The notes: generated by a model from the letters alone, not told the origin. A DNA stretch of 64,000 bases from an uncultured virus (IMG/VR IMGVR_UViG_2061766007_000135) (IMGVR_UViG_2061766007_000135), one strand, 5' to 3'; shown: positions 16,178 through 51,188, counted from the first letter of the stretch. Numbers and translations: made by a program.

Positions 16178-18292
16178 TTATCGCACATAAATCCAAATGC
16201 GGCCATTAACTTCAATATCTTTAGGCACTTCTTTAGAACCTGCGTGCCAAATTTCATAATTCGGAATTTCTGAAACAGTACCAATAATTCGTTCTGGATA
16301 CATCATAATTTCTTCACGAGTCATTATATCTACTGTCCCATCAGGAGCACTACATACAGCTGCACCTAATGAATAATCATCACGATTACGATATGGATAA
16401 ACTAATACACGTCCACTTACTGCAATAGGAGTTTTACATTCTTCTGTTTCACCAATAGCAACACCAAAAGTGTCTGAAATAATTTTAGCACTGGGCATTA
16501 AACGTTCAGTTGCTAATTGCATAATGCCAGTTTGAGTTTCAATAACTACTCTGCCGGGTTCATCTATATTAGTTGCTCGATATTCAGCATAATCATTCCA
16601 CACGGCACCTTTAATACCTAAAGTACTCCTTACATAAGATGCTCCATCACGATAAATTAACCAAGCACCACTACCTGTAACAACTGTACGTGCATTACCA
16701 TCCCAATATGTATTAGTATATACACCCTAAGCTCCACCTGAACAACCGAAATAGACGTCTAAATTCTTCTAATCTCCATCAGCATTTCTTACTGCAAACC
16801 ATCTCTATGAACTATCTGGACTTTCAATCGTAATAGTATTTTTAAACCACCACATAGAGGTCCCATAACTCCATGAAATTTTACCTGCATGAGTTGAATC
16901 ATTATCATTATAAGGGAAAAGAGCTATGCTTGGATCATAATTATTTTGTGCTTTTATACAAAGTGTACCGCCTACATTGTGATCACCAATATAAACATCA
17001 TCACCTATAGCAAACCAAGTGTTATTTACACCCGTTTTTACTGCATTGGGATCATCTGCGTAACCATAAAAATGAAAATGTGCATCAGTGCTATCATAAT
17101 GCATTATAGTAGTATAAGTACCACTACTATAATTTCCTAAACGTAATTTATTATTATAAAAATCTAATTGTGCATAAGAACTAGTGTCATTATATCTATA
17201 TAATCTAATGGTTCCGCCATTACCACTACCTGTGGTAGTACCACTACCATCCGCCCATATTGCAACTCCTTGAAGCCATTGTTTTGATAATACCTAAAAA
17301 GTAGTAACTGGTATTGAAGTTATTACTGAACCATCTTTATAATATGAACCAAAAAATGTTGTCATCCAATCTAACCAAGTCCCATTATTATAATTACGTT
17401 GTAAAATTTGATACCCAGTCATATCTGGACCAACTACAGATCGCGCGCGTATAAAATCATATCCTAATTTATCATGATAACTTACACTATCAACTTCCTC
17501 ATCTGGTGCATTAGAAGCACCTAAATTATTATACTGTATTGTAAGAGAGGAATTAGCACTTTCATTTTTTAAACAAACATTTCTTATTACGGGAGCTGTT
17601 GACCATGAAGGAGGAGCACCAGTGCCGCCACCAACTAAAACTACATTACCAGCACCTACATCTGTTGATGCAGTTGTCTATGCATCAGTCGCATAAATTA
17701 CTCCCTAAGTAGTATAATTAGTAGATGATTTACCTACAAAATATCTATTACCACCTACCGCAGGAATCGTCCAAGTTCGATCTGAACTAGCCGCACTTTC
17801 AATAGTTGCGCAATAAGCATTACTATTATATAATTTAATCTATCCTTTATAATTGCCTTTAGTGCCAGAAGCAGTCGCATTACCTATTTGTAATGTACTT
17901 ACGCCAATAGCGCTTGTTGTACCCATTGTAGATAGATGCGCACGAAATGCAGTAGTACTACCACTGGTATCATAAATATAATATCCACCACCAGTGCCAC
18001 TGCGATAAAGAAAAATTTCTTGTTTGCAACCAAGACGTTTATCAACTACTAATCCACCTTTAATATACAAAGAGCCATTATTAGTTGATGAACTATCAGT
18101 AATACCATTTATAGTAACTACCCAACTTGCAGCATCAGTGCCGGCAGTAGAAATACCACCATACCATTGACCATTAGAGGGAGTAAAATATAATTCATTA
18201 GCATTAATTGTGTTATTGGCTAATGCGGCATCATATTGCGCCTATGTTAAATAATTAATTCTCAAAGGAGAAACACTTGTTGTTGTAGCCAT
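16178..18292 (-). CDS. Tail fibre/spike with C-terminal intramolecular chaperone (peptidase G2-like) domain (704 aa, code 15)
   Basis: Fragments 17840, 16805 and 16178 share one frame joined by TAGs; C-terminus WNDYAEY...PGRV...IISDTFG...PIAVSGRVLV; N-terminus INYLT(Q)AQY. Confidence 0.8.
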
Positions 18293-18309
18293 TATATTTT
18301 ACCACCTTT

Positions 18310-19062
18310 TTAATTTGCTATTAATTCAAAAGAACGAGCAATTGTATCACGATATGCAGTTTGATTACCTTCATATACTTTCCACTGGCAGGATATAGTA
18401 GTTGAAGCGGGCACTAAAGCCTAAATACTTGCCGCAGGACAATATGTACTATTTAATCGAACATTTAAGCCTGGTATGATAAGATTTAAATATTCATTAC
18501 TGGCACCAGATGTTCCACCACGACTTGCCACTCCACTTCCACTAGGAAAAACACCATAAGCAGTTGAAGCATAAGCAGCATATGTATTATTAGCTTTTTG
18601 ATATAAATAATTATTATATGTAAAACCACTACCAGTACCAACACTGAATGTTGTACTTAATGCTCCAGTAGCAGATGCTATTGTATAATAATGATCGATT
18701 GCAAAAACCCGTCCAACTGCACTACGAATACCATGAATAGTAGAAGCTACATTATTACTGCCATAATTATAATTTACTACACATTCATAAAAAATAAGAT
18801 ATGCGAATAATTGTGTATTAATAACAGGAGCTCCATAGGTGCCTCCTATACGATAACAAGTTGCACTATTGCCGACTGTTGTTGTATAAGTAGTAGTAAA
18901 TAATGGAATACTTTGAGACGAAGTGGAAGGAGTTATAGTGCTAAACTAAGTTTGACCTAAATTAAAATTATATGTTTTAGTAGCAATTAAATGCCCACCC
19001 ATCATAAAACCATCATTCGGCTATGTTAACTAAACTTGATTTGTACCTAAATAAAGCGCCAT
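18310..19062 (-). CDS. Tail fibre-associated protein (250 aa, 4 TAG); missing from the ORF track
   Basis: Starts MALYLGTNQV(Q)LT(Q), like MAVYLGS at 29608; GGTG SD; ends TAA. Confidence 0.75.
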
Positions 19063-19066
19063 TAAC

Positions 19067-20548
19067 TCACCACCTTACAATTTCTATTCCTGGCACTGCT
19101 GCCCATTCTGGCGCACCAGAACCATTACTCTTTAAAAACTAACCAGAAGTACCTGCAGTTGTAGGTGCATAAATAGTTGCAGTTGATTCTGCTTTTGATG
19201 TACCATTTAAAGTTACACAAGTGCCTCCTGCATATGTTTTACCAGCAGTAATTACACCATCTCTAGTTACATAAACTGGTTTAGTTGTTGAGCCTACTGC
19301 GCTCCATACTGCGGCCCCAGTAGTTGAATCGATAGTAGAATCTATATGTGCTAATGTTTTCCATACACCATATGTCCAAACACCATTACTTTTTGCAAGA
19401 TGACGATATAATAAAGAAAAACTACTATCCATAACAAACTATTTGATATAATTTTCACTATAAGTAGCAGCATTAATAAGTTTAAAACCGCAACCCCAGT
19501 CAGGCAACTAACCATGCAAAGTTTGAGTACGGGGACCATTAATTGAATAATAAGTACCAGGTGTAACAATATCGGTATCAATATTAGTACCTTCCGCAAT
19601 CTCCTAGCCCACTGACCATAAATTTATACCAATACCAGGAATATCTCCGTTAGTATTAAAATAATATTTAGTCCCATCACAATAACCAATATAATAACCT
19701 GCTGGAAAAGTATAATTAGTTGAACTAGAAGCTTGGCCATTTAACCAAATTGGTAATGCACCTTCGCCGCAAATATTTAAAGTTAAAGCCTATGCTACAC
19801 TATTGCTATTTACATTAAAAAATGCGAAATGCCCTTTCTAAATAGTATAATTACCAATACCATAACCAACTTTAGCTGCAGTTCCTGCTGCTGTATCTGT
19901 ATAAGCAGTTAAATAATATTGATTATTATACCAATATTGTCTAAACCAATAAGTACCATCATAAATAAACAAAACAATAGCGCCATCTATCCAACCAGTA
20001 GTACAAACACCACTACTCATTGCTGCACTACCATATTGATATACTTGTTTTTTAGTACCAACTGTAGTACCAGATGGATACTAAAATGCTAAAGTCATTG
20101 TCGCAGCAGCAGATGCATTAGTAAATTTTACTGCCACTGTTGTTCCTGCTGTTAAACTAAATCCATCACCATTAGTTAAAATAACTACTTTATCTTTAGT
20201 TGCCTACGCAGTAGAACAAGTCCCATAATATGTGCCTAAAAATGGCTACCAACTTGGTACGCCATTCATTGATTTTAATACTTGCCCCTAAGTTCCTACA
20301 CTAAGACCACTTACTGTATTTGCTGCTGAACCATATAATAAATCACCTTTGGCAACACCAGTAAATGCACTTAATGGAATACCAGTTAATTCTGCACCGC
20401 TACCATAAAATTTATTGGCATAAACATTATTCCATTTTAAAGAACTGGTGCCTAAATTATATACACTAGTTGTTTGAGGATTTAAATTACTTAGTACTTT
20501 ATCGACTACTTTTAGACTAATTACTGAAGTATCGCCGAGAACTGCCAA
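19067..20548 (-). CDS. Tail fibre protein (493 aa, code 15)
   Basis: TTG start after GGGGGG SD; fragments 20288/19838/19139 in one frame; Gly/Thr-rich; ends GIEIVRW-TGA. Confidence 0.78.
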
Positions 20549-22615
20549 TTAAATCCCCCCTTTAATCTAAATTTTTTCTTCCTTACGTGCAGTACTACCA
20601 GTTAATATTGGCTCTACACGAAGATCACTATATTTAATTGGTACTGTGCCATCATTAGAATACTAATTTAATTTAATTTTCATATATGCGGTTATATTAG
20701 GTATACCGCCCCAAGATCCGTAAGAATCTTCTCCATCCCAAAAATTCGTACGATCCAAACCAATATATCCTTCAACATATTTCCAAGTATTATCAGTGGG
20801 CAATGCACTTTTTTGAATCGGATAATGCCAATTAGCACCATTATAGCTTTCAACAACCCAAGTATCTTTAGCTCTTGTTGTACCAGAATATGCAATTTTT
20901 AAATTTACTTGATTAGTACTAGTAACGCTATTTACCACTCCAGTTATATCATTGCTAAATCTTCCTATATCATGATAACCAATAGTCGAATTAGAACGAA
21001 ATCCAAGGGCTGAATAATCTCTTGCAATCCAATTAGCATTACTTTTTACATACATAACCGTATCACCAGCAGTAAGTGCTTGTGTTAATTGTGTTTTAGT
21101 ATTATTAACATATGTTACATCAACATGAGATAAAAGTTTATTATTTGCAGTATAATAACCTACTGTCACTAAAAACTTACTCATATCTTGTTTACATTTA
21201 ATCCAAAATGAAATTTTATAACACTAATTGGGAACTACGGCTATTTTTATAGGTAAGAAGTCAGTACTAACACCAACACCCTATACCACAGATGCAGTAG
21301 CATTTCCAGCTACATCAGTAGTGTCCCAAGTCCAACCACTAGGCAAAAATGCTGTGTCTTGTTTTGCACCATCACCATTAGGATATAAATTACATTCATT
21401 AAATTGCCGACTAGCAAAAGTGCCACCATCAATTTTATCTTTATTGCCTAAAACTGTATAATTAATTAACTCCTCGTGATCAGTAATTATAGAAGTATTT
21501 ACATATGCTAAATACCAAGTCACTGCAGTCATATCGGGGCCTGCGCTAATATATACGTGTCCACCAGTACTAAAATCTGTATCACCAGAAGTTGCGCCGC
21601 AACGATATAATATCGCATACTCTTCCCAATTACCAGTACCTTGATCTGAAGTGATAAATTGTACTACTGCTCCAGCTCCCTAATTATTATACTTAGCACT
21701 TACAGTATATCCTGCAGGTATTTTAGCTACAAATCGTTCAATAACTACTCGATTAGCTGCAGCAGTATGAGTGGCTACAAATCCTCCCAATTTTGGTGAA
21801 ATCTAACCAACATTGGTATCTGCGGTAATTTGTAAAATATAAGGATGGGATGCCGCAAAAGGTGAATTTTGACTAGTAGCTGCTATACGCGTTAAAGTAA
21901 CTCCATTGCCACTTTTATGATTATACACTGCAACTAAAGTGCTTGTATCAAAATAATTATCATTCATTAATGAAGTATGTGTCGTATATGCACGCATACC
22001 ATCAGGTTCTACATAAGTAGTACCACTAATAGTTCCTTTATGAATAGAAACTTTATTAGTAATTGGTGTAGTAATTAAGTTACTAATACTTAATGTGGTA
22101 TAAGGTGCAATATATGGTAAATTATTATCACACCAAGTTATCATACTATCAGAATCAGTTACTAAACCGCAACTTAATAAATATTCATATAAATCTTGTA
22201 TATCATAAACACATAAATTTTTTACTTGACCTTGCACTCCACTAATCGCATTCTTAGGTCCCTAATAAATAGTTCCAAACGTACGTGTAAATGGATTGGC
22301 ACTATTAATATTATAAACTCTAACACCTGAAGCAGTATATTCAGTATTCGCAGTAGGATTATTTATTAAAGCAGGAGAAAATACAATCTAGCCTTGTTGC
22401 GCATAAGCTTTTACCCAAGTTGGAGACTAATTAGTAGTAGTAAATTTATATGTAAAGCGACAATAATATAATTTATTCATAGAGAGTCGCGTTTCATAAT
22501 CAAAAGTATAACAAGCATATGCACTATTTGGTGTACTCCATTCACTACTACTATTCATAGCTAAATTATGAATACATAATCCATCTTTCTCTATTATTCT
22601 ATCAGAAAAAATCAC
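20549..22615 (-). CDS. Tail fibre/carbohydrate-binding-like protein (688 aa, code 15)
   Basis: GTG start; fragments 22427/21803/21281/20663 in one frame; stop abuts the next start. Confidence 0.72.
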
Positions 22616-22631
22616 TTATGTCAAGCCCCCT

Positions 22632-23987
22632 TTAGGTTGTAATTTCTAAACAACCCGCAGTAGCATTATAAGTAATTACTGCATTAGAAGTAACCTAAAA
22701 TGTTGGCGCAGTAATTGCGCCAGTAGATGGATTTACTGTAGCTAGCTTATTAGTTGTAGCTCCATATTTAACTGCCGCAAGTTCATTATTATTATTAGTA
22801 CCAGTACTATTTTTTACTAAGATAGCATGTTCTGCATTATCAGTAATAGCAGTTTGTTTTACTAATTCGGCATCAGTAAGAAAAGCAAGAGTGCCATCTC
22901 CATTTTGTAAACGTATTGCACGGTTAGCACTTAAAGTATCTAATGGCCATAAATCTACATAATACCCATTATTAAAAAGTGTTAAACCACCTTTTACAGT
23001 TGAACTACCTAAGACTAAACATCTCATAGTTCCATTTTTATTTTCATACAAATGCGCGCCACTCACTGCACGAGGTCTATGATTACCAGATGAAGAAGAA
23101 CTAAACCATATTGGATAAGTTTTAGCGGCAGTAGTATCAGAAGTATGAGCTTTTAATTGAATCTAACCATTATAGCGCCAAGTATTATTAGTAGTATCAG
23201 CTAAAAGAATCCATTTTTCATCACCGGTATTTGTAGAATTTTCATCATATAAACCGTGATTAGTATTACCAGATCCAATACCCCACCAATAATCAATAGG
23301 CTTGCCACTTATTGTTGAAATTATTTCCAAACTTTTGGTCGTTGTGCCGCTGCTATGCTAATTTGAAATAAACATTTTAGCATCAATATTACCGACAACA
23401 CTTAAATAATTACTTGGTGTTAAAGTATTAATACCTACTCGGCCATTAGATTGAATCATCATTCTAGCTTTAGCACCTTGCGCAAAACTATCGGTAGTTG
23501 CAAAATATAAACGAGTACCATAACTACCAGAAGATTGCGCATAAATACCACCAGAAGCTGCATTACTTGCAGCACCAAATGTAATACCGCCTACCCAACC
23601 AGTATTAACATCTGTACCAGAACCACCAGCACCATTTACTATATGCAATTCTCTTATATCAGTTCCAATTACCATAGAGCTACTACTTAAATTCATAGAT
23701 GTAGGTATTGTATCTGCTTGTAATATATGACTCCAAGTTCCATCACCGCGCAAAAAATTAGCCGTTGTATTAGAAGAAGGATAAGTACCACCTAAGACAT
23801 TCGGCAAACTAGCCCAATAAATAGTTGTACCATTGGACATTAAATACTAATTAGCCGAACCTGCTGTCAATGAAGATCCGCCATTAGTAGAAGGTGCATA
23901 TAATTTAGAAATTGAAATCCAAGGAGTTATTACTTTTTCAGAAACATTTAAACTCCCAGTAACTGTTGTGCTTTTTAACTAAGCCAT
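22632..23987 (-). CDS. Tail fibre protein (451 aa, code 15)
   Basis: AGGAGG SD; starts MA(Q)LKSTTV; FLRGDGTW and GRVGINT fibre motifs; fragments 23358/22695 in frame. Confidence 0.8.
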
Positions 23988-23999
23988 GTAATTCCTCCT

Positions 24000-25940
24000 T
24001 TATATTTCTAAAAACTATTCCGCGGAGAACCGAATGTTATCATTGATTTGAGGATTAATAGTCATATTATCTTTTTCTTGTAATTCACTATTAATAACTC
24101 CAATACGCATTACTGCAAAAGCCATTGGATTTTGTTCATTTACAATTAAATGTTTATTACTTGGTATCGTCGTTGAATTACAATAATCTAATTTCAGTTT
24201 ACCATACGCATTATTAGGTAAATTATATTTTTCAGGAAACACTAAGCTATGATTTAATGTAAGTGTAGCACTTGATGGCTATGCACTATTATTGGTTGTA
24301 GTTGTTGATATTGTTTTATTAGCCACAGTTATAGTGGTAAGTAAATTATCATTTTCATCATAAATATCTAAATGCCAAGCTACTCGTGAATATAACAAAT
24401 AATAATATTGAGTACTAGCATTAGCACTACTTTTTCTAGAATAACTAAATTTTTTTCCCGAAACAGTAATAAGAGGATAAGTAAACTAATATTCTTTATT
24501 ATTAATTAGATTAATAGAATGATTAAAAGTTACTATTGTTCTAGTTGCACTAATATATTTTGTAACCATTTTTCCACTCTCATAAGTCTAATAGCTACCA
24601 CAATGAAAACTTTCAGTAGTTGTAGTATAAGTACTTGAAGTAGTTATTACATCTGAAATTGTAGTAGATTCATTATCAGCAATTTCATTATACTCATAAC
24701 CATAGGCATTATGAGCATCATCAATACGTAAACCTAAAAAATATAAACTAGATACCTATTCCGCAGTTAAAGCTGTACTATATATTCGAAAATCATCTAT
24801 ATAATAATCATTAGAAGCATACGTGGTAACATTATCCCATCCATTTAAAAAAATAGTAGTACCAGTAATAGCTTTATAAGTTTTAGCTTCTGCCCATAAA
24901 ACTCCATCCTAATATACGCGACATTTTGTGCCATCACCTGTCATAACCCAATGATGCCAAGTATTTAATGTAGGTTTTGTAACCTAAGTAGTAGTGCCCG
25001 GATTATATAAAGGATTACTAGATGAATCACCAGTATTCCATAAATTACCATTATATAATCCATTTAAACGAACACCATCCTTAAAACCCCAATGCATTGG
25101 ACCATTACTTGATATTTTTGCCCACCACGCAAAGCTGTAATTATTAGTAAAATCTGTAACATTTAAATTACTTATCTATACATGCTAATTAGTTGCAGTA
25201 AAATGTAAACTCTTTAAATAACGTCCCGTATCTGTAGTAAATACTGGAGTGTTAATTATCGAACCATTAAATCCATAACCTGAATTATCATAAATAGTTG
25301 TACCATCAGCTTCATCACATTTTAAATGCACAACTAAACCTTTGGCTAACTCTTGTACTTCTGCAATAGATAAACAATGATCATATAAACGAAAATCATT
25401 TATCTTACCTTCTAAAGCTGTAGCACCTGTCTGTTTATCACGCCCTAAATAATAAGCACCTTGTGTTTTAGTGCGAGTCGTTAGCGGTCCAGTCCAAGTT
25501 TGTTGTACAACACCATCAACATATAAAAGTAATGTGGTACCATCATATGTATATGCAATATGCGCCCAAGTATCTTGTTCTATATTAAAAGTTGATGATA
25601 AATCAGGACTACCAGCCCAATAAAAACGTAAGTTATGTGCTGCGCTTAACTCAATATTAAAATTTATTCCGCCAGTTAAGTTATAATCCCCAAAAATCAC
25701 ACCACGACTAGCTTCATTATGCTATATCCAAAAAGCAATAGTAAATGGAACATTCCCACCTGTAATAATACTATAAAAAATTTCTCCTGTCAAAGATATA
25801 TAATCATCACTACCATCAAAAGAATAACTTTGACATAACTTACCACTAGAAACTACCGCTCCACTTACTACTGCATCTATTGAAGCATATCCATTATTTT
25901 TTAATGTCCCATTAAGAGGGAGCCATACTGCTAATGCCAT
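24000..25940 (-). CDS. LamG/concanavalin A-like lectin domain tail protein (646 aa, code 15)
   Basis: Starts MALAVWLPLNG; WAHIAYTYDG...LYVDG...GKINDFRLYD LamG-like signatures; ends FLEI-TAA. Confidence 0.82.
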
Positions 25941-29608: not shown

Positions 29609-29619
29609 AATTTCCCTCC

Positions 29620-37726: not shown

Positions 37727-37746
37727 TCAATGCTACCTCCTTTAAA

Positions 37747-39612: not shown

Positions 39613-40073
39613 TGATTATTTTCTCCTTTCATTACTACTTCTTTTAATGCTAAAACAATAGCCTCGTAATATCTCTTAGCATCTGCAGACAACTAACTGA
39701 TCATAGCTATCTATGAAGACAACTAATAATGTTCAGTTTTTAAAATAACACGAACCGAAGTACTTTCAATATGAGTGCCGCTATCTATTTCTAAAATAAA
39801 TAATGACATCATAACCGAGGCATTAGTAATACGTAATGTAGCAATAGAAGGCATACGATAAACGAGATGACCTCCATCATTTATTGTATTATGTAATTCT
39901 ACTACATCTCGTAAACCAGTAGTGGTATCTTTTAAAATTAAAAATACCTAAATATGTTTAGTTGGACGATATGGAATATAAAAATCAATATCATCCACAT
40001 CAACGGCAGTAGTCACAGAAAAATCAGTTAATGTTAATGATCCTATGCCGTTATATTCTACCTTGGGTCGCAT
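39609..40073 (-). CDS. Hypothetical protein (154 aa, 4 TAG); missing from the ORF track
   Basis: GGGGGG SD; ATGA overlap with the next gene. Confidence 0.75.
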
Positions 40074-40128: not shown

Positions 40129-40174
40129 TAAATAATATAAAATTATTTCTACATTATTTAATCATTCATGCCCA
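40129..40174 (-). promoter_or_regulatory. Putative phage-specific motif, copy C
   Basis: TGGGCAT-N7-TAA-AT-AA-TG-TA, same spacing as copies A and B. Confidence 0.35.
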
Positions 40175-40370
40175 TATCCACTTCTTGCCATTTAGCAATT
40201 TCAGAAGCGGGAATGGTCACAATTTTTACACGTCTTTCACCATCGGTTAAGATTTTACCATTATCGGCATGAAGCTTGAGTAATTTTACAGAGTAAATAC
40301 CCTCTAAATATACTTGGCTTTCAATCGTACCATTGGTGCCCAAATAACGATACATTGGAGTTTTAGTCAT
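40158..40370 (-). CDS. Small tail-associated hypothetical protein (70 aa), TAG-free
   Basis: AAGGAGG SD before ATG 40370; LHADNGKILTDG motif. Confidence 0.75.
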   Translation of the reverse strand: MTKTPMYRYLGTNGTIESQVYLEGIYSVKLLKLHADNGKILTDGERRVKIVTIPASEIAKWQEVDMGMND

Positions 40371-40387: not shown

Positions 40388-43300
40388 TCAAACTTCATAA
40401 ACATGATAATATTGTTCTTCAAATGTTTCTTGCTCAGCACTATCTGACCATACAAGACCACATACCTCTTTTACCAAGAAATCAATACACTATCTCCAGT
40501 CATTAAAACCACTTTCCATAGTATGAGAAGCACTAGGTGTAGTGGTCATATAAACATAAACATTTACACCCAATGTAACATTCGCAAATACCGTTCTACC
40601 ACTTGTCATAGAATAACCATGGAAAAGTGAATCAATTGGAACAGTATTGCTACCAAATGTAATAGAATTAATATTAGCATAGGCAAATGCATATCTAGCA
40701 TTAAAATTAGTTACACTACTATTAACTACAGAAGCAGGAATAATCAAATCAACTGGATGCGCCGCCGAGAAAGCACTATTAAAAGCACTTTCACCGAGAT
40801 ATGATAAATGAATTGGTAAAGTGTCTAAGCGTAAAGATGAACATCCATAGAAAGCATAATTACCAATCGTAACAATACTATTTGGTAAATCTACATAACG
40901 TAAATTAGATACAGGCTATCTTTGATTGATTTCATCATATTGTAAATCAAAATTAAAAGTATGCGCTGAAATAGTATCAATTACTGCCGTATTATCATTA
41001 GAGCCTTCAAAGAAAACAGCGATAATATCTTCATTATTTTCTAATGGACCATGAGCATCACTTTCGCCCTATTGATCAATAGATGTAGTTAAAGTAGCAC
41101 GAATTTCTAAAGTTTCACCATTATGTGTCACACGTTTTGGGAAACAAATTTTACCTTTTAAACCACATTCTGGATTAATGGTTGCGCCCCAATATGGATC
41201 CTATTGCGTGCCCATACGTTCAAGGATCATCTGGTCTTCAGTTAATGGATGTGCGTATACACTTTCTAATTCAAATGTAGCAAAGAAAGAAATATTATTC
41301 TATACTCTCAATGGAACCGTACCATTATATATGGTAGCATCATCAGTTAAACTTGTGCGCCAACCAACAAAATGATATGTACTATATAAGCTCATATTTG
41401 GATCAGTAGTGTCATCTTTCCAAGGAACTAATGGTGTTAATGTTACATCTTGACCAGCAACGGCAATTGTTCTTACATTTGATCCTTCATATTGGAATGG
41501 TTCGCCAGTGTCCATATAATAAGAACAAATATAACCTGTTTGCGCAAAGACTGCCACAAATGTATAAGAACTTTCTACCAAACTATATTGGCTTAAACTC
41601 TTATAAGTGCTTAATTGTGTTTCTGCATCTTCACAAATAACCGTACTGGTACGATTACCAACAGTACCATTAGTAACCATCCAATCATTATGAACAGAAC
41701 CTTTTGCTTCCCAGTCAAATCCATTATTACCAACAAGAGCCCAGCCCAAGAAGTCATAATGTAATCTTTGTGGAGTATCAAAAGTATAAGTAACTGTTGA
41801 ACTTAAGCCATTAACAGTAGGTGCGTATTTTTGTGTGCCAAATTCATGAATTGAACCGTCAGGTAAATATTCAATGAAACGAGCCTTATGAGCAGGTTCT
41901 ATATATTCGGCAGTAATATCTAAATCTGGGAAATGTGTTGCAGTTTGATAATAGCCAAAGATTTTTGCTTCATCTATCTTATGATTACTATCATTATGTA
42001 CATGAATATGACCAGTAATCTATGGAATTAATTTTTTATTTGGATCTAATGCATCAGTATAAATCGGTCTGAAATAATATGAATCATATGGTACAGCACC
42101 TTGACTATTTGGATTGTTTGGCGCATCTAAATCAGAACAGAAACGATCTAACATAGACAAATCTGTAATTGGGCTATTGCCTTTTTCTTTAATATACAAA
42201 ATACCATTTTGTAAATCTTTATTCCATTGCGCCGCAGTAGTATATTCATATGGTTCATATGTTGCATCATCACGATAATAATAAGAAGCAATTTGATTAC
42301 TATCATATACTTCATCAATAGTTAATTGACGATATGGCGTCCAATCTACATTCTTTAAAGAAATCATTAAGATTGGAGAAGTATCTTCAATGTTATTTTG
42401 TTGATCTGAGGCAACAATTTTTAAATGATACAAATAATTTAACAAACGGAATGAGTCATAACCCAACTTAGTATCATCTAATTGTAATTTATTAATCTTA
42501 GTATAAATATTTGTACTAAGCGCTCCACCTTCAGTAAATACTGCAAATTTATCTGCTGCGCTTTCAAAAGTTGGTAATAAGTTAGTTAAATTATCAATAT
42601 ATAATCCAGTAGGATCAGTAGCTGGAGCTGTTACGTGTGTTGGTTTAACCGTTAAAATATTAGTTAATTTCAATGGCTTTTCTAAACTAATTTCAGTTAC
42701 AGTATCTGGTAAATAAATTGTTGTTAAAACATTGCCTTTCGGGAATTCAATAGCGCCAATTTTAGTACCTAACAACTTGATAATTTCTAATTTATTGCAA
42801 GCTGAAATTTGTGGGTCTAAAGTTAAATTGCTTAAGTTACTTAAATCAACTAATCTTAATAAACCTTTAATACTTTCACCAGTAGAACCTACAATACAAC
42901 TAGTTAAAGCTTCATTACGATAACCATCGCGGTCATCGCCAACTTTTAAATCACGTAAACGAATAGCATTACCAAGTACTAATTCGTTAAGATATTTATT
43001 AGATAAATCACCTAAACTAGATACGTATTGTGGACCACGCACATAGGCTAATTGCTAAGTTAAAGCAATACCCAAATTTGCTTTTTTCGCAATAGAAATT
43101 GGTGGATTAATCGTTACTGAATCAACAGCGCCACCCAATAAGAACTTCTATGCGGCAGAAGGTGTTTCATCATAAATAACAGAAACATATTGAGATAAAT
43201 ATGGAGAAATAACATAAGTAGCACTTGATGGGAAAGTTACTCCGGCAGAAGTTCTACTTGTATCATTTAAGTTATAACGCATTTTAATTTGACCGCTTGC

Positions 43301-46300
43301 CTTTTTAGGATCATATGCGCCAGCGCCCCATTCAGAGTCTAAATAATTAAATCTGTTACGAATCATAGACATTCTTTGTAAATGTCTATCGCCCTGTAAG
43401 CAATAATAATAGTCTTCCGTCCAATCAGTATTGCCATCTTGATCAGTAAAACCATATTCTGTTAAAGCAGGAGCCAAATATTTATAAAACTCATCATAGT
43501 TCTTCATAACTGGAGACCACTTATTACTACTCAAAGTTTCATAATATTCAATAACACGCTCATATTTAAATTCTTTTTCACGTAAGGCTTTATACAAACC
43601 CATTATTTCATTTTTAAAGCAAAGATATATATTATTCCATAATACTGAACCATTGCCAGAGAAAATAGAATCAGTAGAACCAGTTGCGCTATAAATTTCA
43701 ATATCAGGAATATTAACACCATTAATATTGCGAGTTATTAATTGTCCCTGAGAATTAGTAGCGCGCCAAGCTAATGGAGGAGTAGCATCTACATCATAAT
43801 CCCAATATACTTGACCAGAATTATTAATGCCTAACTAAGTATCCATATCATAGAAAATTGGATACCAAATATAATCACCATTTGCTTCTTCTGGACCCCA
43901 AGAAGCAATCATCATATTTTTCTGACGAGAGTCATAAAGTAAGAAGAATTCAGTAATTAAGAAATAGAACCAAGTATAATTAAGATTTAAATGCTTAATT
44001 GCTTCATTCTTAAATTTCGCTAAACGATAACGATTAGTATCTGCGGTAAAATATTCATATAAGTCAGTTGAGAAACCAGCATATGTAATTTCAAATTTAA
44101 TTGAAATATAACGCCATAAAGCAGTTCCTGTATCTGATAAAATAATACCAATATCAGCTAAATCATCTATCGTATAAGTACCATACTTCCATTTTTGTGC
44201 GGTAGTATCATAAATAAATGCATGTTCAGTAATATATTCTGTATCATGCGCATCAGAATTTTCATTTTCTGCGCCATCACTTTGAACGCGAATGAATTTA
44301 AGCAATTTTTCTTGTCCACCATTTGGATCAATAGTTAATTTACCAGCTAATGGATCATAATAATTTTCATTAGTAATTGCTCCAGTTTCTTCGTCATATT
44401 CTAAAATAGTTTCATCATATGCACCAAGTATTGTGAATACTTTTTGCACAATAATTGTCTATTCACTATAAGTATCATTCTGAACATCTTTATTATAATA
44501 AGTAATATATGGTTCATATGTGCGTGATAAAGTTTTATAATAGATTGGTTCAATAGTACGTTTTGGACGAGCATTATCTGTAAAATCATAACTAGTTACA
44601 TCTGTTGAACGTACCCAGTCCCAGAATCTACCAAAATTAACACTACGTGCTGCCCATTCAGCACTTGAACCAGCTTTTGCTTCATCTGCATGATTGGTGG
44701 TTTTCATTTCAGGATAACGCTGTTCGAAATGATCTTCAATACCATAATAAGTTTCCTGATTAGTTGGATCAGTTAACGTACTTAACCATTCTTCATCGCC
44801 ATCTTGGAACTTAGAATAACCAGGTTGATTCTAACGTAATTCCCAACATTCGCAAACGTCAGCATAAGTTAAATTTTCTGTTTTTTCAGTTACAATGCAA
44901 GTCTTTTTAGTAGGATCAGTTTTATCAGCTTTGGTCTAATTTACAGATGTAGCATAAGGATGTGCAGTTTCATCAGTAAAACCAAAAACATTTTCTGAAC
45001 CCTTATGAATATTTAAATTATAACGACCAATATATTCTTTATTACCATCGCCATCTTCCCAGAAGACAATAATAGGATAACCATATACTGCTGTACGATA
45101 TAATTTAGCATCTTCGGAATTAGGTAATAAACGTCTTAATGGATGACGTAAATCATAAGTAGTAGCATCATTCAAAAGGAATGTACTATAATTAGCACCA
45201 GCAGTATTATGAGTAGATGCACTATCCATATAATCCGCTTTTAAACAGAATTCTTTTGCTGGCAAGCATTGTCCAATAGGCCAGAAACCTTCTTCCATTG
45301 CTTCGACAGTATAAATATCTCGGTTAGCTTCATCGCCGTCCCAAGCTTCAATGCGGAATGGATTAGCTTCAATGCCTAAAGGTGTCATTAAAGTAGGATC
45401 TGCCCAATCGGCTGAACCGACTTCCAATGCATAACTAAAATTACGACGTGGATAGCCTTGTGAAGAAGTACCTTGTACATTAATTTTACAGTTAGAAATA
45501 TGGAAACTCTTACCTGGGGCTGGATCATAATAATAAATATTTACACCAATTTTATTGCCTTTAAAGTAAGGTAATCTTGGCTGAGTATTTGTTACTGTCG
45601 CACCAGCTGGGAATTTAGGAGTTTTAATTGTCATAACAGGAATTAAGCCTGACTCTTTTACCTTTCGATAATCAAGATTAGTACCTTCATCATTAACAAT
45701 TGCCTTACCTTCAAGATAACGAGTTCTTTTAACTGCTAAACTAGATGCATCGGCCGTCCAGTTCTAACCAATATCAGCAAAACTTAATGGTTGTTCATAA
45801 ATACGAATATTATAAATATCTACATCACAACAATCAGATGTAATAGTAATACCAGATTCACCACTAAAACTTTGAGCAAAACTGATATTAGAAGGATATT
45901 TTAAAACACCGCTTAAAACACCATCAATATAAGCATAAATCATAGGTATACTATTTGAAGCAGGACCAATTACGAAAGAAACTTTAACACGTACATCATC
46001 AGTATAACGTGCGCTTACTAAAGTAGAATGATCTAAGCTTAAGAAAGCTTCTTGTGTACCAAGTAAAATACCCTTTTCACCGCCATAATAAGACAAGAAA
46101 GCACTGTTTGTAGATGAACTAATTACACGTTGAACTATTTCATCACCAGTTTTAGGATTAACTTTTGGTACTCTTTTACCTGTAGCGATTTCAATCGCCC
46201 AACCATCTTCGCCCTCTTCGTATAAACTAAGATCATATGATTTAGCTGTACGAGTTTCATCATCAAACCATTTATTATCACTTAATTCTGCATACTTTAA

Positions 46301-48055
46301 ATAAACGGTTTGTATATTAATTAAACGTGAATAGTCAACAGCGTTATGTACTGCAAAATCAAATTCATAAGTTTGACCAACATTACCGCCACTGCTAAAC
46401 AATGTCATTGGAATAAAAACAGATGCGCCATTAGATACACGTAAAAAGCTATTCTTTTCACTATCCTTAAGCCATCCATTATTATACCAGTTAAAACCTG
46501 TTAAACGAACAGGAGCATCAATCAATTCATCATTTGCGCCAATGGCCTTTAAAACTTTATTATTATTAGTAATAACTTTATTAAGCCAAGTCTAACGCTT
46601 GATTGGAGATTCATCATTAGAACGTCCTGCAGCACTTAAATGTAAAATAGTGCCAGGGACTGGCTCTAAACTATAACGACTTTCTTCAGAAATTTCAACC
46701 TAGGCTTCCCAACTAGCATCGCCAGCTTGGATACGGAAAGTATTCATTCCTAAATGATAATCAATAATATCCCAATAGATATATGAACCAGCTGAATATG
46801 TTATATCTTGACTACTAATTTCTTCATCATTAATATAATAAGTAACTGTAATACTAGATGTACTATTAGCTGGATCAATAATTTTATAAGGAATATCAAT
46901 TAAAGTATAATTAACAAATCCAGCACCAGTACGAGGGAAAGGAGACCAAATAATAATTCCTTCCGCATCTTTAATCCAACCAATTTCATAATGCAAATCT
47001 TTACTAATTTCTACCGCTGTTGTACCGATTGTTAAAATCGCAGTTATATCTAAAGTATGTGCGCCGTGAGTAGCAGACTCAAAAATTGGCCACAAATCAA
47101 ATACACCACTAGTAGTAGAAATTGTTTCTTTGCGTGTTACCGGAGAACCAAAATTAGCATCACGTACCGCAGTTACTTCAATTGTTCCAGTTTGGAACAA
47201 ATCACTTGGAGTAACCCCTTCACCTAAAGTTAACTACCAAGGGAATTTAAATTCACCTGCAGAATACTCATAAAAGTTTTCTGGAGTCCATTGATTTGTT
47301 GGACCATAATTAACGTCAATAACTGAAAAACTAGTACTTAATACTTCAGATTCACGATCATTAATAAAAGCTTTAACCTTTAATACTGTTTGTCCAATGC
47401 GCAAATAACTTGCTGGAATATTTAATTCAATAGTGCCAGAACCATTAGTTAAATTCAAACGACCTGGGCTCCAAGTTTCACGATAAGGTTCAAGAGCTGT
47501 GCGGCTTGAATAAAAGCTAACTTCAAATTCAGCCTAGCTACCACGTTTTCTGTCGACAACGCGTAAAGTTGCTCTTGCATTTTGTCCTTTTGCAATCATA
47601 GGTGGGAAATTTACATCATAACTTAAATCAATAGATGCAGCACTTCCGCCACCATTGCCAGAAACTAAGATTTCTTCTACCCAACAATATGTATTATCAA
47701 TTCTCTTGATACGATATAATGTACCATCGTGATTGATAATAATATCTTCCACATTATAGGTTTCAACTGGCTTATTAATTACAGTATAAGCCAATTCAAT
47801 TGCCGTACGTGGATATGGGAGTAAACCTTGTGAGTCGTCTGTGGCGACTAGCGTATCCGCACAGTCGCCATAAACGAACTTAATTCCTGACCCGCTCATA
47901 ACATGACGCTGCCCTTGTGCATCATCAAAATAAATTTTATTGGTATCATATGCAAAAAATACCGCACCTGGGGCAGTAGCAAAATTTTGAATCTACTCAT
48001 CTGTCCCACGATATGGTAAGAAAGCATCATTTGAACGTTCAGAAGTTACACTCAT
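40388..48055 (-). CDS. Giant virion/tail protein with LamG-like, CotH-kinase-like and LRR regions (2555 aa, code 15)
   Basis: Eleven ORF-track fragments (47534 to 40490) share one frame separated by TAG; AGGAG SD; QGTSSQGYPRRN, LKADYMDS, YDSRQKNM, FYDMDT(Q)LGINNSG; C-terminal LPNSIVTIGNYAF repeats; ends TGA. Confidence 0.8.
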
Positions 48056-48085
48056 TTTAAAACTCCTTTCTCTCAATGAGAATCA

Positions 48086-50014
48086 TTAAGTTGTAGGATC
48101 AAAAGATTCCCACATCAAATCCACACTATATGAAGCAGCACTAGTAGGCTTTGTAATAGTTAAACTTGATGAAGTTAAACTCATTGCTGCACCATTCGTC
48201 CAAGTTGAACCACCCCAACCTGGTTTATAGCCTGGAGTTAACGTAAGAACATTATTACTTAAACTTTGTGCTAACTAAATGGCACTAATACCATCGTCGA
48301 TAGCAACCTAGAAAGTTTCAGTAGTTGTTCCCGTGACATGACCATTTTCAATAGTAAGACCTGTAATGGCTGAAAAAGTCTAATTACGAGAAGCAGTTGA
48401 ACTAGTATTACTAACAACCTTATTGCCGCTATTAGCGCTTGTAACACTGGCGGTATTATAAGGAGTATGTTTAATATAGACAACTGATTTACCATTGTTT
48501 GTACCACCACTAATAGTGGTAATAGATGAATCAATTTCTAAACCAGTACCAACACCAATGGCTTTATCACCAATAGTCATACCACTACCATTTGCATCCA
48601 AATAGAGGTATGTAAATTGATTACTTGTACCACCACCACTAATAGCAGTAGCCAATTTATAACTGTTGATTGCATCATCGCCGGATGGAATTAAAGTCCA
48701 AACAATATCAGCAGGTGCTAAATAACCAGCACTATTTTCAGTTTTTCCTGCCGCAGCACTAGCAATTAACAAATCACCTTGACGTGCTGATGTAGTTATT
48801 ACGTCAGTACCACTGCTACCAGCTTTAATTGTGACAGTGTCTCCAGCTGGACAATTAACATAATAAACATCGCCAATAGAAACGCCACTGTTATTATTTG
48901 TATCACCAGATGGTAAGACATACTATAATGAAACACCTGAACCAGTAGTTGGCACAGTGCCTTTATAGGTCATTGCATTAGCGCTCTAAAATTTAGTAGC
49001 AATTAATTCATCAATCTAAGCAATAGTATATACTGGTAAATTTGCAGTGACTGTAGCAGTGCGAGCACTATTAGCTGTTGAATAAGTGTATGTTACATCA
49101 TTCGCGCCAGTGCCAATAGTAGTAGTAGAATTATTATTTCTATTATCGCCTACGACAAATTGATAACGTACTTGTAATTCACTGCCCACCGTGATTGTGC
49201 CATTATTTGCCGTTTCAGTACTTAATAAACCAATTTTTAAATATTTATTAGTATTGTCCACAGCTCCGCCAACACGGTAATTAGTATTAACCTAAATAGC
49301 TCCGCTAACTACACTAACTGTAGTGCCATTCGCACCGACAATATTAAATGAATTATCAGTTGTGCTATTAACAGCCGTGCCAGCACTATCTGTGCCGCTA
49401 TAAATATTACGAATAGTAACAGTACCACCTGTAACACTATTTTCACTATAAGAAGCAATTACTGGAGTAACTGTATTTGTAACATCACGAACACGTAAAG
49501 ATACTGTTTGGCTGCCAGCATTTTTTGTAACTGTTAACGCAGTACTATTTAAAGACTCAATGGCGAACGCAGGAGAAAATGCTAAAGTGCCATTGGTACC
49601 ACTACCAGGACGTAAATCATAAAAATTAGTTGTAATTGTTGCTTTATTAGATGAAGCTGTGACTACGGTCGCGATAGATTTAAAGATCTTAGATGCATCA
49701 GTATTTTGAGGATTAATCTAAACCCACGCACTTGCACCAGTAAGACCAGTATAACGACATAAAATATTTTCAGCACGAGCATAATATAATGCAGTTGTAC
49801 TTAAATTGGCAGTATCAATAGCCTAAATAGCTGCCCAGTTATTATACTCTCTAAAATCACCAATGCGGATACGTTCTGTGGTAGAGCCATTATTATAGTC
49901 AATATACATTGCACGTTCATCAGTAGCAATATATATATTACCATCAGTTTTTGCATCTGGTAAATTAGCCTAAAGACCTCGCAAGAACTTTACTCTTGCA
50001 TCAGTAGCTGCCAT
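48086..50014 (-). CDS. Tail fibre-like protein (642 aa, code 15)
   Basis: AGGAG SD; starts MAATDARVKFLRGL(Q)ANLP...GNIYIATDE; fragments 49016/48380 in frame; ends LMWESFDPTT-TAA. Confidence 0.78.
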
Positions 50015-50036
50015 GTATTCTCATCTCCTTAATTAA

Positions 50037-51188
50037 TTAATTAGGAATAACTTCCCAAGTTAAAGTAACATCATCAACGCGAGCATCAATATATTCAGTA
50101 ACATTTGGATAAGTTGTACGATTAAATGTTAATGAACCAACATAATTAATCCATTGTCCACGTGCATTTAATGTATAATGTTCTCGATCACCCGCACTTA
50201 AATTTGCTACTGCTGTATTTAACCCAGGTACTACGCCAGGAGCCGTTGTTCCTGAGAATACATCAAGATTAACTACACCCTAACTTAATTCTGGAACTGG
50301 AACATTATTAACACGAATTTCTTGAATACCAACTAATCGTTGTAGATTTTCAAGATCTTCAACACGTTTAATTAAACCAGTGCTTTCAACTCCAGGCGTA
50401 ATAATTGTCCCATCTATAGGGTCAAGTTCAGGTGGAGTACCTACTGTACCAACAGTAGTATCTAAACGATCTAATCTTGTATGAATAGTATCTAAATTTG
50501 TAACTTCGGTTTGTAGAATTTGAACTAAATCTTGTAACCCTTCAAGAGTCAATAAATTAGGTTCATACCAACCTAATGATCCATCAGCTTCTACTTTTGG
50601 AGTTAAACCTGCCGGCCAAGGATGATTAGCATCTACAGTAACCAATTCATAATGTGCAGGAACTGCCGGAACATAACCAGCAGTTCCTTCTTCCCCTTGA
50701 GCTTCTGTAGCTGCTACAAAATGATGATATACTTTTTCATAATTTTTTAATGATAATGCACCATCTTTTAATTCAAAAACATCATCATTTAAATCAAAAT
50801 GTGTTGCCACATTTGCAATTTTCTCATCTAATGTCATACCATCAGCAAAAACAACACTTGAGCTGCGAGTATGAGCATTTAACTAATGCCATTGATCATC
50901 CGCGGCATAGATATATAAATCTTGAGTAGAAGTAGTTCCATCAGTTAAAACTAATAAATCATTAACGACAGGTATGGCACCATTTAACGCGGCAACAATA
51001 TTTTCAACCAAAGTAAGACTTTCATCAATCGTACCAGTATAAAAATGCGCCACACCGATCGGCACAGTGCCGCGATATAACTCATTAGTATCTAATAAGA
51101 AATATAAAGTTTTATCATCTTTAGTTTCTAATGCATCATAATTAGCACGCGTTCCATATCTAAATACTACTTTAGATGTTGCTGCCAT
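50037..51188 (-). CDS. Tail fibre-like protein (383 aa, code 15)
   Basis: GGAGGGAG SD; KVVFRYGTRANY...LYFLLDTNELY N-terminus; fragments 50883/50280 in frame; ends LTWEVIPN-TAA. Confidence 0.78.

Follow-up and report, generated by a model that had tools for sequence, protein, structure and literature searches.

Paired terminal peptides suggest gene-order assembly of fibre components in a TAG-recoded gut phage

INTRODUCTION

The long tail fibre of phage T4 is encoded in the gene order gp34-gp35-gp36-gp37, with a small hinge protein among its parts. In phages such as T2 and S16 (gp37-gp38) or Mu and P2 (Tfa), the gene after that of the fibre gives rise to a protein that binds the C-terminal tip of the fibre, and the two are exchanged together as a pair. 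The LtfA and LtfB fibres of DT57C and the tailspikes of CBA120 attach via N-terminal domains, and we know of no code of paired end and start tags described for either. According to the respective papers, the T4 long tail fibre proteins are placed from phage-proximal to distal (PMC5537660), a short conserved N-terminal peptide docks the variable RBP2 onto RBP1 in podophages of Klebsiella, namely KP32, K11 and KP34 (PMC13352976), and the DT57C LtfA/LtfB fibres as well as the tailspikes of the Ackermannviridae (CBA120) are receptor binders assembled on one another (PMC4728585, PMC11721090). Here we analysed a fibre gene cluster within a 64-kb stretch of DNA from an uncultured virus, called the window below, together with fibre loci of other phages.

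RESULTS

Reading TAG as glutamine (code 15) opened long open reading frames (ORFs) on the minus strand that are fragmented when using translation table 11, and gave 17 fibre genes (G06-G22), all on the minus strand, at positions 16178-51188. These genes contain 1-18 in-frame TAG codons each, with 20-42 found in G01, G03 and G04, and their stops are TAA or TGA, TAG terminating no gene. A search for tRNA genes found none within the window. Such TAG recoding is also seen in the gut phage phAss-1 ('Caudoviricetes code 15 clade'; PMC10607447), which has two suppressor tRNAs with the anticodon CTA and a tail protein with ~29-31% identity to G04 of the window. That phage is a distant relative only and was uninformative with regards to the tags studied here, because its fibre region is far shorter than that of the window.

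The candidate tags at the C-termini of the fibre proteins would read ..hWE.. (a), [FWY][ND]xTxxx[ILV]xFxF (b), hxxNxhxxxxFIEI (c) and [IV]x[IL]xR[WF] (d), with the putative N-terminal counterparts being a PF24243-like xGTxAxYxxL..LYFxTD (A), the predicted first strand of a LamG lectin (B), MAQLKDLIVNGxxRF (C) and MxxYLG[ST] (D). The features of the cluster, all on the minus strand, were as follows.

G06, 50037..51188, minus: 383 aa; A-type start MAATSKVVFRYGTRANYDAL..LYFLLDT, a-type end LTWEVIPN; residues 9-30 match PF24243 'Phage tail tip domain' (Pfam, E 3e-7, 30.1 bits against a cut-off of 23.7)
G07, 48086..50014, minus: fibre protein of 642 aa; A-type start, a-type end LMWESFDPTT
G08, 40388..48055, minus: 2555 aa; A-type start, with leucine-rich repeats of the BspA type close to the C-terminus (Pfam LRR_5, E 5e-10, residues 2384-2476; phrog_14959, E 6e-63), end YYHVYEV
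Unlisted ORF, 40158..40370, minus: 70 aa; strong AAGGAGG ribosome-binding site, 17 nt past the G08 stop; MYRYLGTNG near its start resembles the D tag
G09, 39609-40073, minus: within the block 37118..40073
G10, 37747-39612, minus: has a domain in common with G11 (residues 64-220 against G11 residues 38-182, blastp E 3e-7)
G11, 37118-37726, minus: a-type end VAWFDLKGN
G12, 33611..37090, minus: shaft protein of 1159 aa; TTG start, A-type start motif, b-type end FNSSDNAIDFIFI
G13, 31040..33598, minus: lectin-like protein of 852 aa with two LamG domains (Laminin_G_3, PF13385, E 1.8e-33, above the gathering score); B start MALQVWLPLN, c end CYNEI
G14, 29620..31023, minus: fibre protein of 467 aa; C start MAQLKST, d end EIEIIRFG
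G15, 27605..29608, minus: leucine-rich-repeat protein of 667 aa (weak LRR_5 match); D start MAVYLGS; C-terminal part homologous to a D protein of locus L037 (E 2e-11)
G16, 25953..27593, minus: fibre protein of 546 aa (Phage_fiber_2, E 1.4e-5); A-type start ..VIYLTKAQYQTL..LYFLTD, b end WNNTNNSVEFVFMT
G17, 24000..25940, minus: LamG protein of 646 aa (PF13385, E 3.8e-39, above the gathering score); B start MALAVWLPLN, c end EQFLEI
G18, 22632..23987, minus: fibre protein of 451 aa; C start MAQLKST, degenerate b end YNATAGCLEITT; weak homology to G14 over the full length (E 8e-7)
G19, 20549..22615, minus: 688 aa; GTG start with an alternative ATG at 22558, end IQIKGGI; phrog_5911 'tail protein' (E 2e-21), weak CBM_4_9 match
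G20, 19067..20548, minus: fibre protein of 493 aa; TTG start immediately next to the G19 stop, C start in the variant form MAVLGDT, d end GIEIVRW
G21, 18310..19062, minus: 250 aa; D start MALYLGT
G22, 16178..18292, minus: terminal fibre protein of 704 aa; A-type start ..RINYLTQAQYD, C-terminal domain ending in NGRIWIYVR

The six proteins with A-type starts (G06, G07, G08, G12, G16 and G22) group together in a hidden Markov model (HMM) built from these six; when probed with PF24243, G22 scored under the cut-off (E 0.0054, 16.5 bits) and no match to this family was seen in the terminal fragments of G07, G08, G12 and G16. The NGRIWIYVR ending of G22 was also found in the last fibres of loci L029, L102, L109, L110 and L124. 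G19, which occupies the slot of a lectin, was considered as a further LamG protein and rejected, its hhalign probability against a LamG profile being 0.06%. Searches of PDB sequences with G14, G21 and G22 gave chance-level matches only (E >= 0.22).

Using the TAG=Q reading, we found every end and start motif listed in the first-pass annotation, which had proposed four types of junction, at its position. LTWEVIPN, LMWESFDPTT and VAWFDLKGN, ending G06, G07 and G11, are each followed by a start (at 50014, 48055 and 37090, respectively) that contains F-x(2,4)-G and [YF]xxxD. For the second type, FNSSDNAIDFIFI of G12 and WNNTNNSVEFVFMT of G16 are followed by MALQVWLPLN and MALAVWLPLN, and YNATAGCLEITT of G18 by the GTG start at 22615. 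YNEI (G13) and FLEI (G17) come before MAQLKST, as does KGGI (G19) before MAVLGDT. In the fourth type EIEIIRFG (G14) precedes MAVYLG and GIEIVRW (G20) precedes MALYLG, with the MAVYLG gene followed by a start with YLTKAQY and the MALYLG gene by one with YLTQAQY.

The same annotation had described the gene middles as largely unrelated or shuffled, which was only partly right, several of them being homologous. The body of G21 is unrelated to those of the other D proteins. G13 and G17 are homologous lengthwise, G14 and G18 weakly so, and G12 with G16 and G16 with G22 are homologous too. G12 is a mosaic with segments recurring in G14, G16 and G20: a segment common to G12 and G14 has 92 of 137 residues identical, 43 of these 92 by different codons, and G12 residues 385-581 have 41% identity with G20 residues 107-305. 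Together with the window order [A,b][B,c][C,d][D], which repeats ~2.5 times, these homologies favour plain tandem cassette duplication, whereby the end>start pairs would be residual similarity of paralogues having no pairing function. Statistics within the window were uninformative, because tandem duplication is the relevant null there.

Pairing was assessed in other phages by scanning viral contigs with three one-sided motif searches, which gave 124 loci in genetic codes 4, 11 and 15 and, among 1377 adjacent gene pairs, 536 junctions after dereplication. With regular expressions that were tuned after the data had been seen, B and C start motifs that were themselves scan seeds, and Fisher p-values that are inflated by relatedness among the phages, 29 of 33 [FWY]N..[IVL].F.F ends preceded a LamG gene with a MALxVWLPLN start (b>B, p = 3e-35), 28 of 34 MAQLKDL-type starts came after a ..FIEI end (c>C, p = 4e-21), five of six ..IxRW ends preceded an MxxYLG[ST] start (d>D, p = 2e-9) and an a-end preceded 8 of 23 A starts (a>A, p = 6e-6). 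Three of the four b>B misses are LamG genes with a start that was mis-called or variant. The end>start pairings were strongly non-random across these junctions, and adjacency of the motif pairs in relatives, on which the earlier proposal depended, was borne out, with the same pairs recurring under other gene orders, codes and bodies. For example, the pairs are preserved in L014, L093 and L123, where the genes run C-fibre(b) > LamG(c) > C-fibre. Within the family of C-start fibres (39 dereplicated of 69), the gene that follows can be predicted from the end of the fibre itself: a b-end was followed by LamG in three of four cases and a d-end by a D start in two of three, with other ends followed by either in 0 of 32.

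As judged by blastp, the conserved element is the junction and not the body. The b|B junctions have 10 unrelated upstream bodies, the c|C junctions 11 upstream and 11 downstream clusters, and the d|D junctions five upstream and four downstream clusters. The D tag (~7-10 aa) is carried by at least four unrelated bodies, namely leucine-rich-repeat proteins, G21, one unrelated family and one 51-aa peptide, and the C tag (~20 aa) by 11 body clusters; among 18 small c-ending proteins, the E of FIEI is the sole invariant alignment column. Cassette duplication, raised earlier as the simpler alternative, accounts for the repeated order in the window but not for conservation confined to the tags, which occur as single-copy pairs on unrelated bodies in many other phages of three genetic codes. 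Moreover, the paralogues of the window are old, the DNA of the fibre region having only one pair of repeats of >=40 nt, at 70% identity, and synonymous differences, with the tags still conserved. Duplication is contradicted as a sufficient explanation, serving solely to explain how the repetition arose, and we judge it quite improbable as an account of the pairs.

At the DNA level, the codons of the junctions vary at synonymous sites, also between the window's own paralogous junctions, and the spacers range from 0 to ~220 nt. Given bodies that are frequently unrelated and synonymous differences in the junction DNA, selection acts on the peptides, and on this sequence evidence the tags are under protein-level selection. 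If the junctions were instead ribosome-binding, translational-coupling or recombination sites, with the peptides as by-products, features such as the R-W-stop written AGG TGG TGA in six of nine d|D junctions, with a 2-8 nt spacer and thus Shine-Dalgarno-like for the next gene, or the TAT TTA GG constant in nine of nine D starts, would be accounted for. However, ..IIRW is retained in L048 as CGT TGG TAG with a 68-nt spacer, ..IIRFG is retained in G14 with a separate GGAGGG after the stop, and several b|B and c|C junctions, whose spacers span the whole range, have no Shine-Dalgarno-like sequence. With synonymous variation throughout the junctions as well, we hold such nucleotide-level signals to be a very improbable explanation.

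Exceptions to strict pairing were of several kinds. LamG genes occur in tandem, four after a single b-end in L011 and two each in L020 and L014, as do C fibres in L094 and L109, D genes in L048 and A2 fibres in L007. All members of such an array have the start tag in common and the cognate end precedes the first member only, which is easier to reconcile with branching or a common anchor than with a strict chain. Tagged fibres without a downstream partner gene were found in L103 (b-like end, then a holin-like gene) and L112 (d-end, then a membrane protein), and G18>G19 of the window likewise has a b-like end with no LamG partner next. The idea of a single long collinear fibre fits poorly with these arrays and with the cluster-final tagged fibres of L103 and L112. 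Small genes encoding 73-166 aa lie between the c-end and the C start in L088, L102, L109-L111, L114 and L123. In unsplit long fibres (L020, twice in L106, L048 and L064) the C core lies mid-chain after an ..I[DS]E.. strand, and the c|C junction may therefore be the split of a once-continuous shaft. The D proteins have no C-terminal motif in common, and D>A2 is a gene-order rule only.

Nor did MALxVWLPLN behave as a grafted docking peptide. In an AF2 model of G17 residues 1-220 (pLDDT 80.7), which has a ConA-like lectin fold (best Foldseek match 5hon_A, E 2e-11), residues 3-7 are modelled as a strand, the first of the LamG fold, and the GLVxHYxL strand of the B tag recurs inside LamG proteins. 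On this model the B tag is an inherent part of the LamG fold. That finding, as well as the tandem genes having a start tag with no cognate upstream end and the partnerless fibres of L103 and L112, would agree with inherited synteny under independent constraints, where an old module keeps its order by descent and the ends at a junction never touch. The N-tags would then be anchors to a common hub or a first fold strand, the C-tags folding or trimerisation nuclei, and the bodies would seem unrelated only through fast evolution of receptor-binding genes; G13/G17 and G14/G18, being diverged homologues, show that fast body divergence does occur. Against this, the next gene in the C-start family tracks the C-terminal tag and not the family, none of the 32 other ends preceding B or D, and an extreme C-terminus conserved over 7-15 residues on variable or unrelated bodies is uncommon at the distal ends of fibres, where variability is usually highest. 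Taken as a whole, we find inherited synteny unlikely, if deserving of weight.

DISCUSSION

The pairing of ends and starts suggests a fibre whose parts fit into each other in the order of their genes. Our best reading, to which we would give about an even chance, is that shafts, lectins and tip proteins are linked by head-to-tail connector tags. The cluster would be a multi-component adsorption apparatus, built from a set of modules that is common among phages infecting anaerobes of the gut and rumen, with short terminal peptides serving as head-to-tail connectors between neighbouring gene products. The C-terminal tag of one protein would find its counterpart in the N-terminal strand of the next gene's product, so that gene order would mirror assembly order, and recombination could swap shafts, lectins and tip proteins with the ability to assemble being kept. 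In the window, an old duplication would have multiplied one series of modules, [A-shaft(b) > lectin(c) > C-shaft(d) > D tip]. The products are probably composite or branched fibres, three or four in number (G06-G08, G09-G15, G16-G21 and G22), with each such fibre opened by an A-type protein, rather than one long fibre. The tags, their pairing across lineages and selection on the peptides are shown here; physical contact, its stoichiometry and the choice between a linear and a branched geometry are inferred.

A broader proposal, which we put forward tentatively and with some doubt, is that of a portable plug-and-socket code in gut and rumen phages using codes 4, 11 and 15, in which at least four terminal peptide pairs of 7-20 residues specify the attachment of components. 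If so, the wiring of composite fibres with several receptor binders could be read straight from the ends and starts of genes, and recombination could lengthen or rearrange chains of shaft > lectin > shaft > lectin. The window, with ~17 fibre genes in three or four 'sentences', would then be the most elaborate example among those examined.

Compared with the known systems, the window resembles T5-like DT57C, with its branched lateral fibres, and CBA120 in having several receptor binders with genes side by side. A b-end followed by a lectin resembles the fibre and tip-adhesin pairs of T2/S16 (gp37-gp38) and Mu/P2 (Tfa), but the lectin of the window bears a further tag and is followed by another shaft; no gp38, Tfa, adhesin or fibre-assembly family was among the Pfam or PHROGs matches of the window fibre proteins. 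The D and C tags are, like the docking peptide of the Klebsiella receptor-binding proteins (RBPs), short conserved N-terminal peptides on variable proteins, and tandem arrays with one start tag would suit branching of that kind. There, however, the socket is an internal branching domain, whereas here it is the last 7-15 residues at the C-terminus that correlate, with at least four tag pairs in series; no Pfam family for a T4 gp10-like branching domain was found at E <= 0.01 in G06-G22. The likeness to the T4 long tail fibre lies in several proteins from consecutive genes, which are joined end to end in T4 and, going by the comparison of loci, would be so in the window. The T4 fibre families gp34-gp37 had no Pfam match in the 17 window proteins or in 16 terminal fragments, and no PDB sequence match linked G14, G21 or G22 to them. 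In contrast to T4, the putative connectors of the window would be short portable tags on unrelated bodies, with lectin domains between shafts, and its unit is iterated and reshuffled. The fibre cluster of the window would be a variant of these known multi-protein fibre systems, the T4 long fibre and the Klebsiella docking peptides.

Genetic code and terminal tags of the fibre cluster

Translated with table 11, the minus strand from ~12.9 kb to 64 kb was fragmented into short ORFs; with table 15 (TAG = Q), the same stretch (~12.9–64 kb) resolved into long genes packed as a tight operon, every gene having a GGAGG-type ribosome-binding site on its 5' side. The 17 fibre-cluster genes G06–G22 (16178–51188) contained 1–18 in-frame TAG codons each, and none ended in TAG. 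Encoded on the plus strand at 1–12 kb were a RecJ-like nuclease, an SF1 helicase, a DnaE-type polymerase, guanylate kinase, NrdD/NrdG and dUTPase, and these replication and nucleotide-metabolism genes (1–12000) lacked in-frame TAG, making recoding unnecessary for them. TAG recoding was limited to the late structural and lysis genes of the minus strand (12900–64000). No tRNA, suppressor tRNA included, was found within the 64-kb window. A search of viral contigs with the tail protein G04 found no close relative, and tblastn against GenBank phages gave distant relatives only (phAss-1, MT835469 and Enterococcus phages). The nearest named relatives, both distant, were a contig of faecal origin and phAss-1 ('code 15 clade'), each ~30% identical over half of G04; the fibre region of phAss-1 is too short to inform on the pairing of tags. 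Further features of the region were as follows.

13772–14692, minus strand: lysin-like gene, matching the PHROG 'amidase' family phrog_1794
15009–16058, minus strand: radical-SAM-like gene (phrog_1802) with CxxxCxxC near its start, between the fibre cluster and the lysin-like gene
40158–40370, minus strand: ORF of 70 aa within the 314-nt gap that follows G08 (2555 aa); its AAGGAGG site is strong

The 70-aa ORF carries MYRYLGTNG near its start, which is D-tag-like (see table) and may be compared with a 51-aa D-tagged peptide of L051, one of the loci (L-numbers) retrieved from other phages.

Terminal tags of the fibre-cluster genes (capitals, N-terminal starts; lower case, C-terminal ends)
Tag	Motif	Genes
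A	xGTxAxYxxL...LYFxTD	G06, G07, G08, G12, G16, G22
B	MALxVWLPLN	G13, G17
C	MAQLKST or MAVLGDT	G14, G18, G20
D	MA[VL]YLG	G15, G21
a	..W[EF]..	G06, G07, G11
b	–	G12, G16; degenerate form in G18
c	..NEI, ..LEI	G13, G17; degenerate ..GGI in G19
d	..IEI[IV]R[FW]	G14, G20

All end and start motifs quoted in the first-pass annotation were found at their coordinates in G06–G22 under code 15; its types 1 and 4b (the starts that follow W-containing ends and those that follow D genes) fell into one family by HMM. Seeded on the six A starts of the window, the HMM placed 41 distinct starts of other phages in the same group, and Pfam PF24243 matched G06 above and G22 below its cut-off. From G12 onwards the genes read G12 (A..b), G13 (B..c), G14 (C..d), G15 (D), G16 (A..b), G17 (B..c), G18 (C..b'), G19 (..c'), G20 (C'..d), G21 (D) and G22 (A). 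The middles of the genes had been described as largely unrelated, which is true in part only: G13 and G17 were homologous throughout, G14 and G18 weakly homologous, and G12 was a mosaic having segments in common with G14, G16 and G20. A domain of ~150 aa was common to G10 and G11 (37118–39612, minus strand; E 3e-7) and is reminiscent of upper-baseplate (BppU-type) proteins, with no such Pfam match found.

The end of the last fibre, G22 (16178–16600, minus strand, for this end), has a ..GAVWNDYAEY.. stretch followed by a terminal ..VNGRIWIYVR, which also terminates the last fibre in L029, L102, L109, L110 and L124; as a guess, such an ending may represent a C-terminal domain for folding or self-cleavage.

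Pairing of tags in other phages

Since tandem duplication alone yields such a pattern within one genome, other phages were searched using seeds from a single side of a junction. Three back-translated motifs, MALxVWLPLN (35 loci), INYLTQ[AS]QYD (an A-type start, here A2; 51 loci) and MAxLK[DN]LxVxG (38 loci), were scanned over viral contigs, which gave phages of codes 11, 15 and 4. Genes were called by a simple rule combining ORFs and ribosome-binding sites, by which the genes of the window are recovered, and the resulting 1377 adjacent pairs were collapsed by shared 4-mers to 536 junctions.

Among these 536 junctions, a B start came next after 29 of 33 b-ends; three of the four misses were lectin (Laminin_G_3/ConA-like, LamG) genes with a mis-called start or the variant MALQVRLPLSG (L014, L099, L105), and the fourth was G18>G19 of the window itself. 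A c-end stood directly before 28 of 34 C starts, the c pattern being loose and matched by 74 ends, and a D start followed 5 of 6 d-ends, with L048 as an extra case overlooked by the pattern. An a-end stood directly before 8 of 23 A starts, with three near misses. The Fisher p values (b>B, 3e-35; c>C, 4e-21; d>D, 2e-9; a>A, 6e-6) are upper-bound impressions only, because the patterns had been tuned on these very data, B and C starts served as seeds and the sequences are related. A scan of genome contigs gave three loci, one a chance match and two, in rumen genome bins, obeying the rule.

The expectation that the pairs stay adjacent under other gene orders was borne out, with a b-ended C fibre, a c-ended LamG gene and another C fibre following one another in L014, L093 and L123. 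G18>G19>G20 of the window has this arrangement with the lectin slot filled by a non-LamG protein.

A further junction type was seen in L002, L043, L089, L093, L096, L128 and others (8 dereplicated cases), where LamG proteins ending in ..YEFKEE, ..GELIET or ..GEYIEW are followed by small proteins (180–240 aa) that start with MS[IV]xK[NS]G[IV] and end in a c tag.

Conservation of junctions and of protein bodies

For comparison of the protein bodies, the tags were cut off and the adjacent 200 residues compared by blastp. The b|B junctions joined 10 unrelated upstream bodies, of 194 to 3024 aa, to LamG proteins of one family, while 11 upstream and 11 downstream body clusters met at c|C junctions, and 5 and 4, respectively, at d|D junctions. 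Carriers of the d tag were the MAQL-type fibres G14, G20 and L043, a 103-aa protein of an abundant small-phage family and unrelated proteins of 630, 290, 277 and 261 aa; those of the D tag were leucine-rich-repeat proteins (G15, L037, L048), G21, another family (L040, L064, L079) and the 51-aa peptide. In 18 small c-ended proteins of several families, the E of ..FIEI was the sole invariant alignment column. As a control within one family, 39 dereplicated C-start fibres were sorted by their ends (G20, which fails the start pattern, not being counted): LamG came next for 3 of the 4 with a b-end, a D start for 2 of the 3 with a d-end, and either of these for 0 of the 32 with other ends. At the level of sequence, the conserved unit is the junction, not the gene.

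Duplication alone would account for the repetition in the window, but it leaves the conservation of the tags unexplained, and we consider it improbable. Inherited synteny, with the ends constrained independently of each other, is a less remote explanation, though still an unlikely one.

The abundant small-phage or prophage family of Oscillospiraceae (L040–L087, contigs of 20–50 kb) ends its fibre genes with the 103-aa protein (..VTLRRW), then MGVYLGS.., then ..INYLTQAQYD.. and directly a lysin-like gene. Searching with the D protein of L045 gave 5268 proteins at E <= 1e-5, one of them named from Subdoligranulum; 120 of the 5268 were listed, and among the matches listed all were at least 90% identical and added no alignment depth. 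L051 was tried as a natural d–D fusion under code 15 and rejected, as code 11 fits better and a TAG stop separates two genes.

Nature of the tags

In 22 aligned LamG N-terminal regions, the strand of the B tag recurred where the next domain begins, in the form GLVxHYxL. For G17 residues 1–220, an AF2 model (pLDDT 80.7; ~65 over the first 20 residues) placed residues 3–7 in a strand of a ConA-like lectin fold, with a carbohydrate-binding domain as top Foldseek match (5hon_A, E 2e-11). Alignment and model thus assign the strand to the LamG fold, and the B tag was rejected as a grafted peptide. The element needing explanation at the second junction is therefore the b-end, after which a lectin gene almost always comes next.

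The C (~20 aa), D (~7–10 aa), c (~14 aa) and d (~7 aa) tags matched no Pfam model, and no solved relative was found for G14, G21 or G22. In unsplit long fibres the C core occurred mid-chain at five sites, with an ..I[DS]E.. strand just before it, which by inspection hints that the c|C junction marks where a continuous shaft has been divided; an HMM of the c half did not pick up this strand ahead of the internal C cores. Taken as a whole, the tag comparisons show strong selection on terminal peptides outside any Pfam model.

Selection on peptide or DNA

Junction spacers ranged from 0 to ~220 nt, several of them without a Shine-Dalgarno-like sequence, and junction codons differed at synonymous sites, also between paralogous junctions of the window. 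Except for one pair of 70% identity, no direct DNA repeats of at least 40 nt were found in the fibre region. In its best-conserved paralogous segment (G12/G14), 92 of 137 residues were identical and 43 of these 92 used different codons; semi-global paralogue profiles were uninformative on the termini. The synonymous divergence and near-absence of DNA repeats imply that the duplication is old, and the synonymous-site differences exclude a recombination or DNA linker as well as recent gene conversion.

The d|D junctions showed apparent dual coding at a gene boundary.

19062–19070 and 29608–29623, with loci L037, L040, L043, L047, L058 and L064: d|D junctions, AGG TGG TGA in 6 of 9

This R-W-stop sequence lies 2–8 nt 5' of the next ATG, and looks like a d-tag coding sequence that also provides the following gene with its Shine-Dalgarno site. 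A nucleotide-level signal as the cause of tag conservation could draw on these six junctions, but the d peptide is kept without any ribosome-site role in L048 (CGT TGG TAG, 68-nt spacer) and G14 (AGA TTT GGT TAA, with its own GGAGGG), and spacers and synonymous codons vary; such a cause seems to us very improbable.

Architecture of the fibre

We favour, with moderate confidence, the reading that the terminal tags are connectors joining fibre components. A strand or hairpin at the C-terminus of one component would pair with the N-terminal strand of its successor, assembly would follow gene order and the bodies would be freely exchangeable.

The first-pass annotation had proposed one long fibre collinear with gene order, which is now disfavoured. 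Tandem paralogues with a common start tag occur as four LamG genes in L011, two in L014 and in L020, C fibres in L094 and L109, D genes in L048 and A2 fibres in L007, the cognate end preceding only the first of them. Moreover, tagged fibres close their cluster in L103 and L112, small genes sometimes intervene between c-end and C start, and D>A2 is a gene-order rule only, the D proteins having no common end motif. These features suggest sockets that accept one of several plugs, or several per trimer, and composite or branched fibres, each 'sentence' being opened by an A-type protein (G06–G08, G09–G15, G16–G21 and G22).

In some large phages, namely L011 (code 15), L014 and L026–L028 (contigs of 361 and 219 kb) and L020, arrays of 2–4 LamG genes with the same start lie behind a single b-ended fibre; they could represent alternative or multiple lectins on one shaft.

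Significance and relation to known systems

Where the host range of an uncultured gut phage is to be predicted or re-engineered, the main unknown is the architecture of its fibres. Were the tags connectors, the sequence by itself would reveal in which order and with which partners fibre components assemble, receptor binders could be exchanged at natural cut points, and there would be an explanation for the abundance of fibre genes in large recoded phages; even without contact between tags, the rule is helpful in annotation. In the portions of the literature available to our search, an end–start tag rule was not found described.

The T4 fibre proteins gp34–gp37 are encoded in order, and gp38 and Tfa proteins are tip adhesins. 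According to the respective reports, gp34–gp37 form an established multi-protein fibre (PMC5537660), N-terminal docking peptides are established for Klebsiella KP32-type systems (PMC13352976) and branched fibres for DT57C (PMC4728585). None of these proteins, gp38 and Tfa included, is homologous to the fibre proteins of the window, and none of these systems is known to employ portable end–start tag pairs in series.
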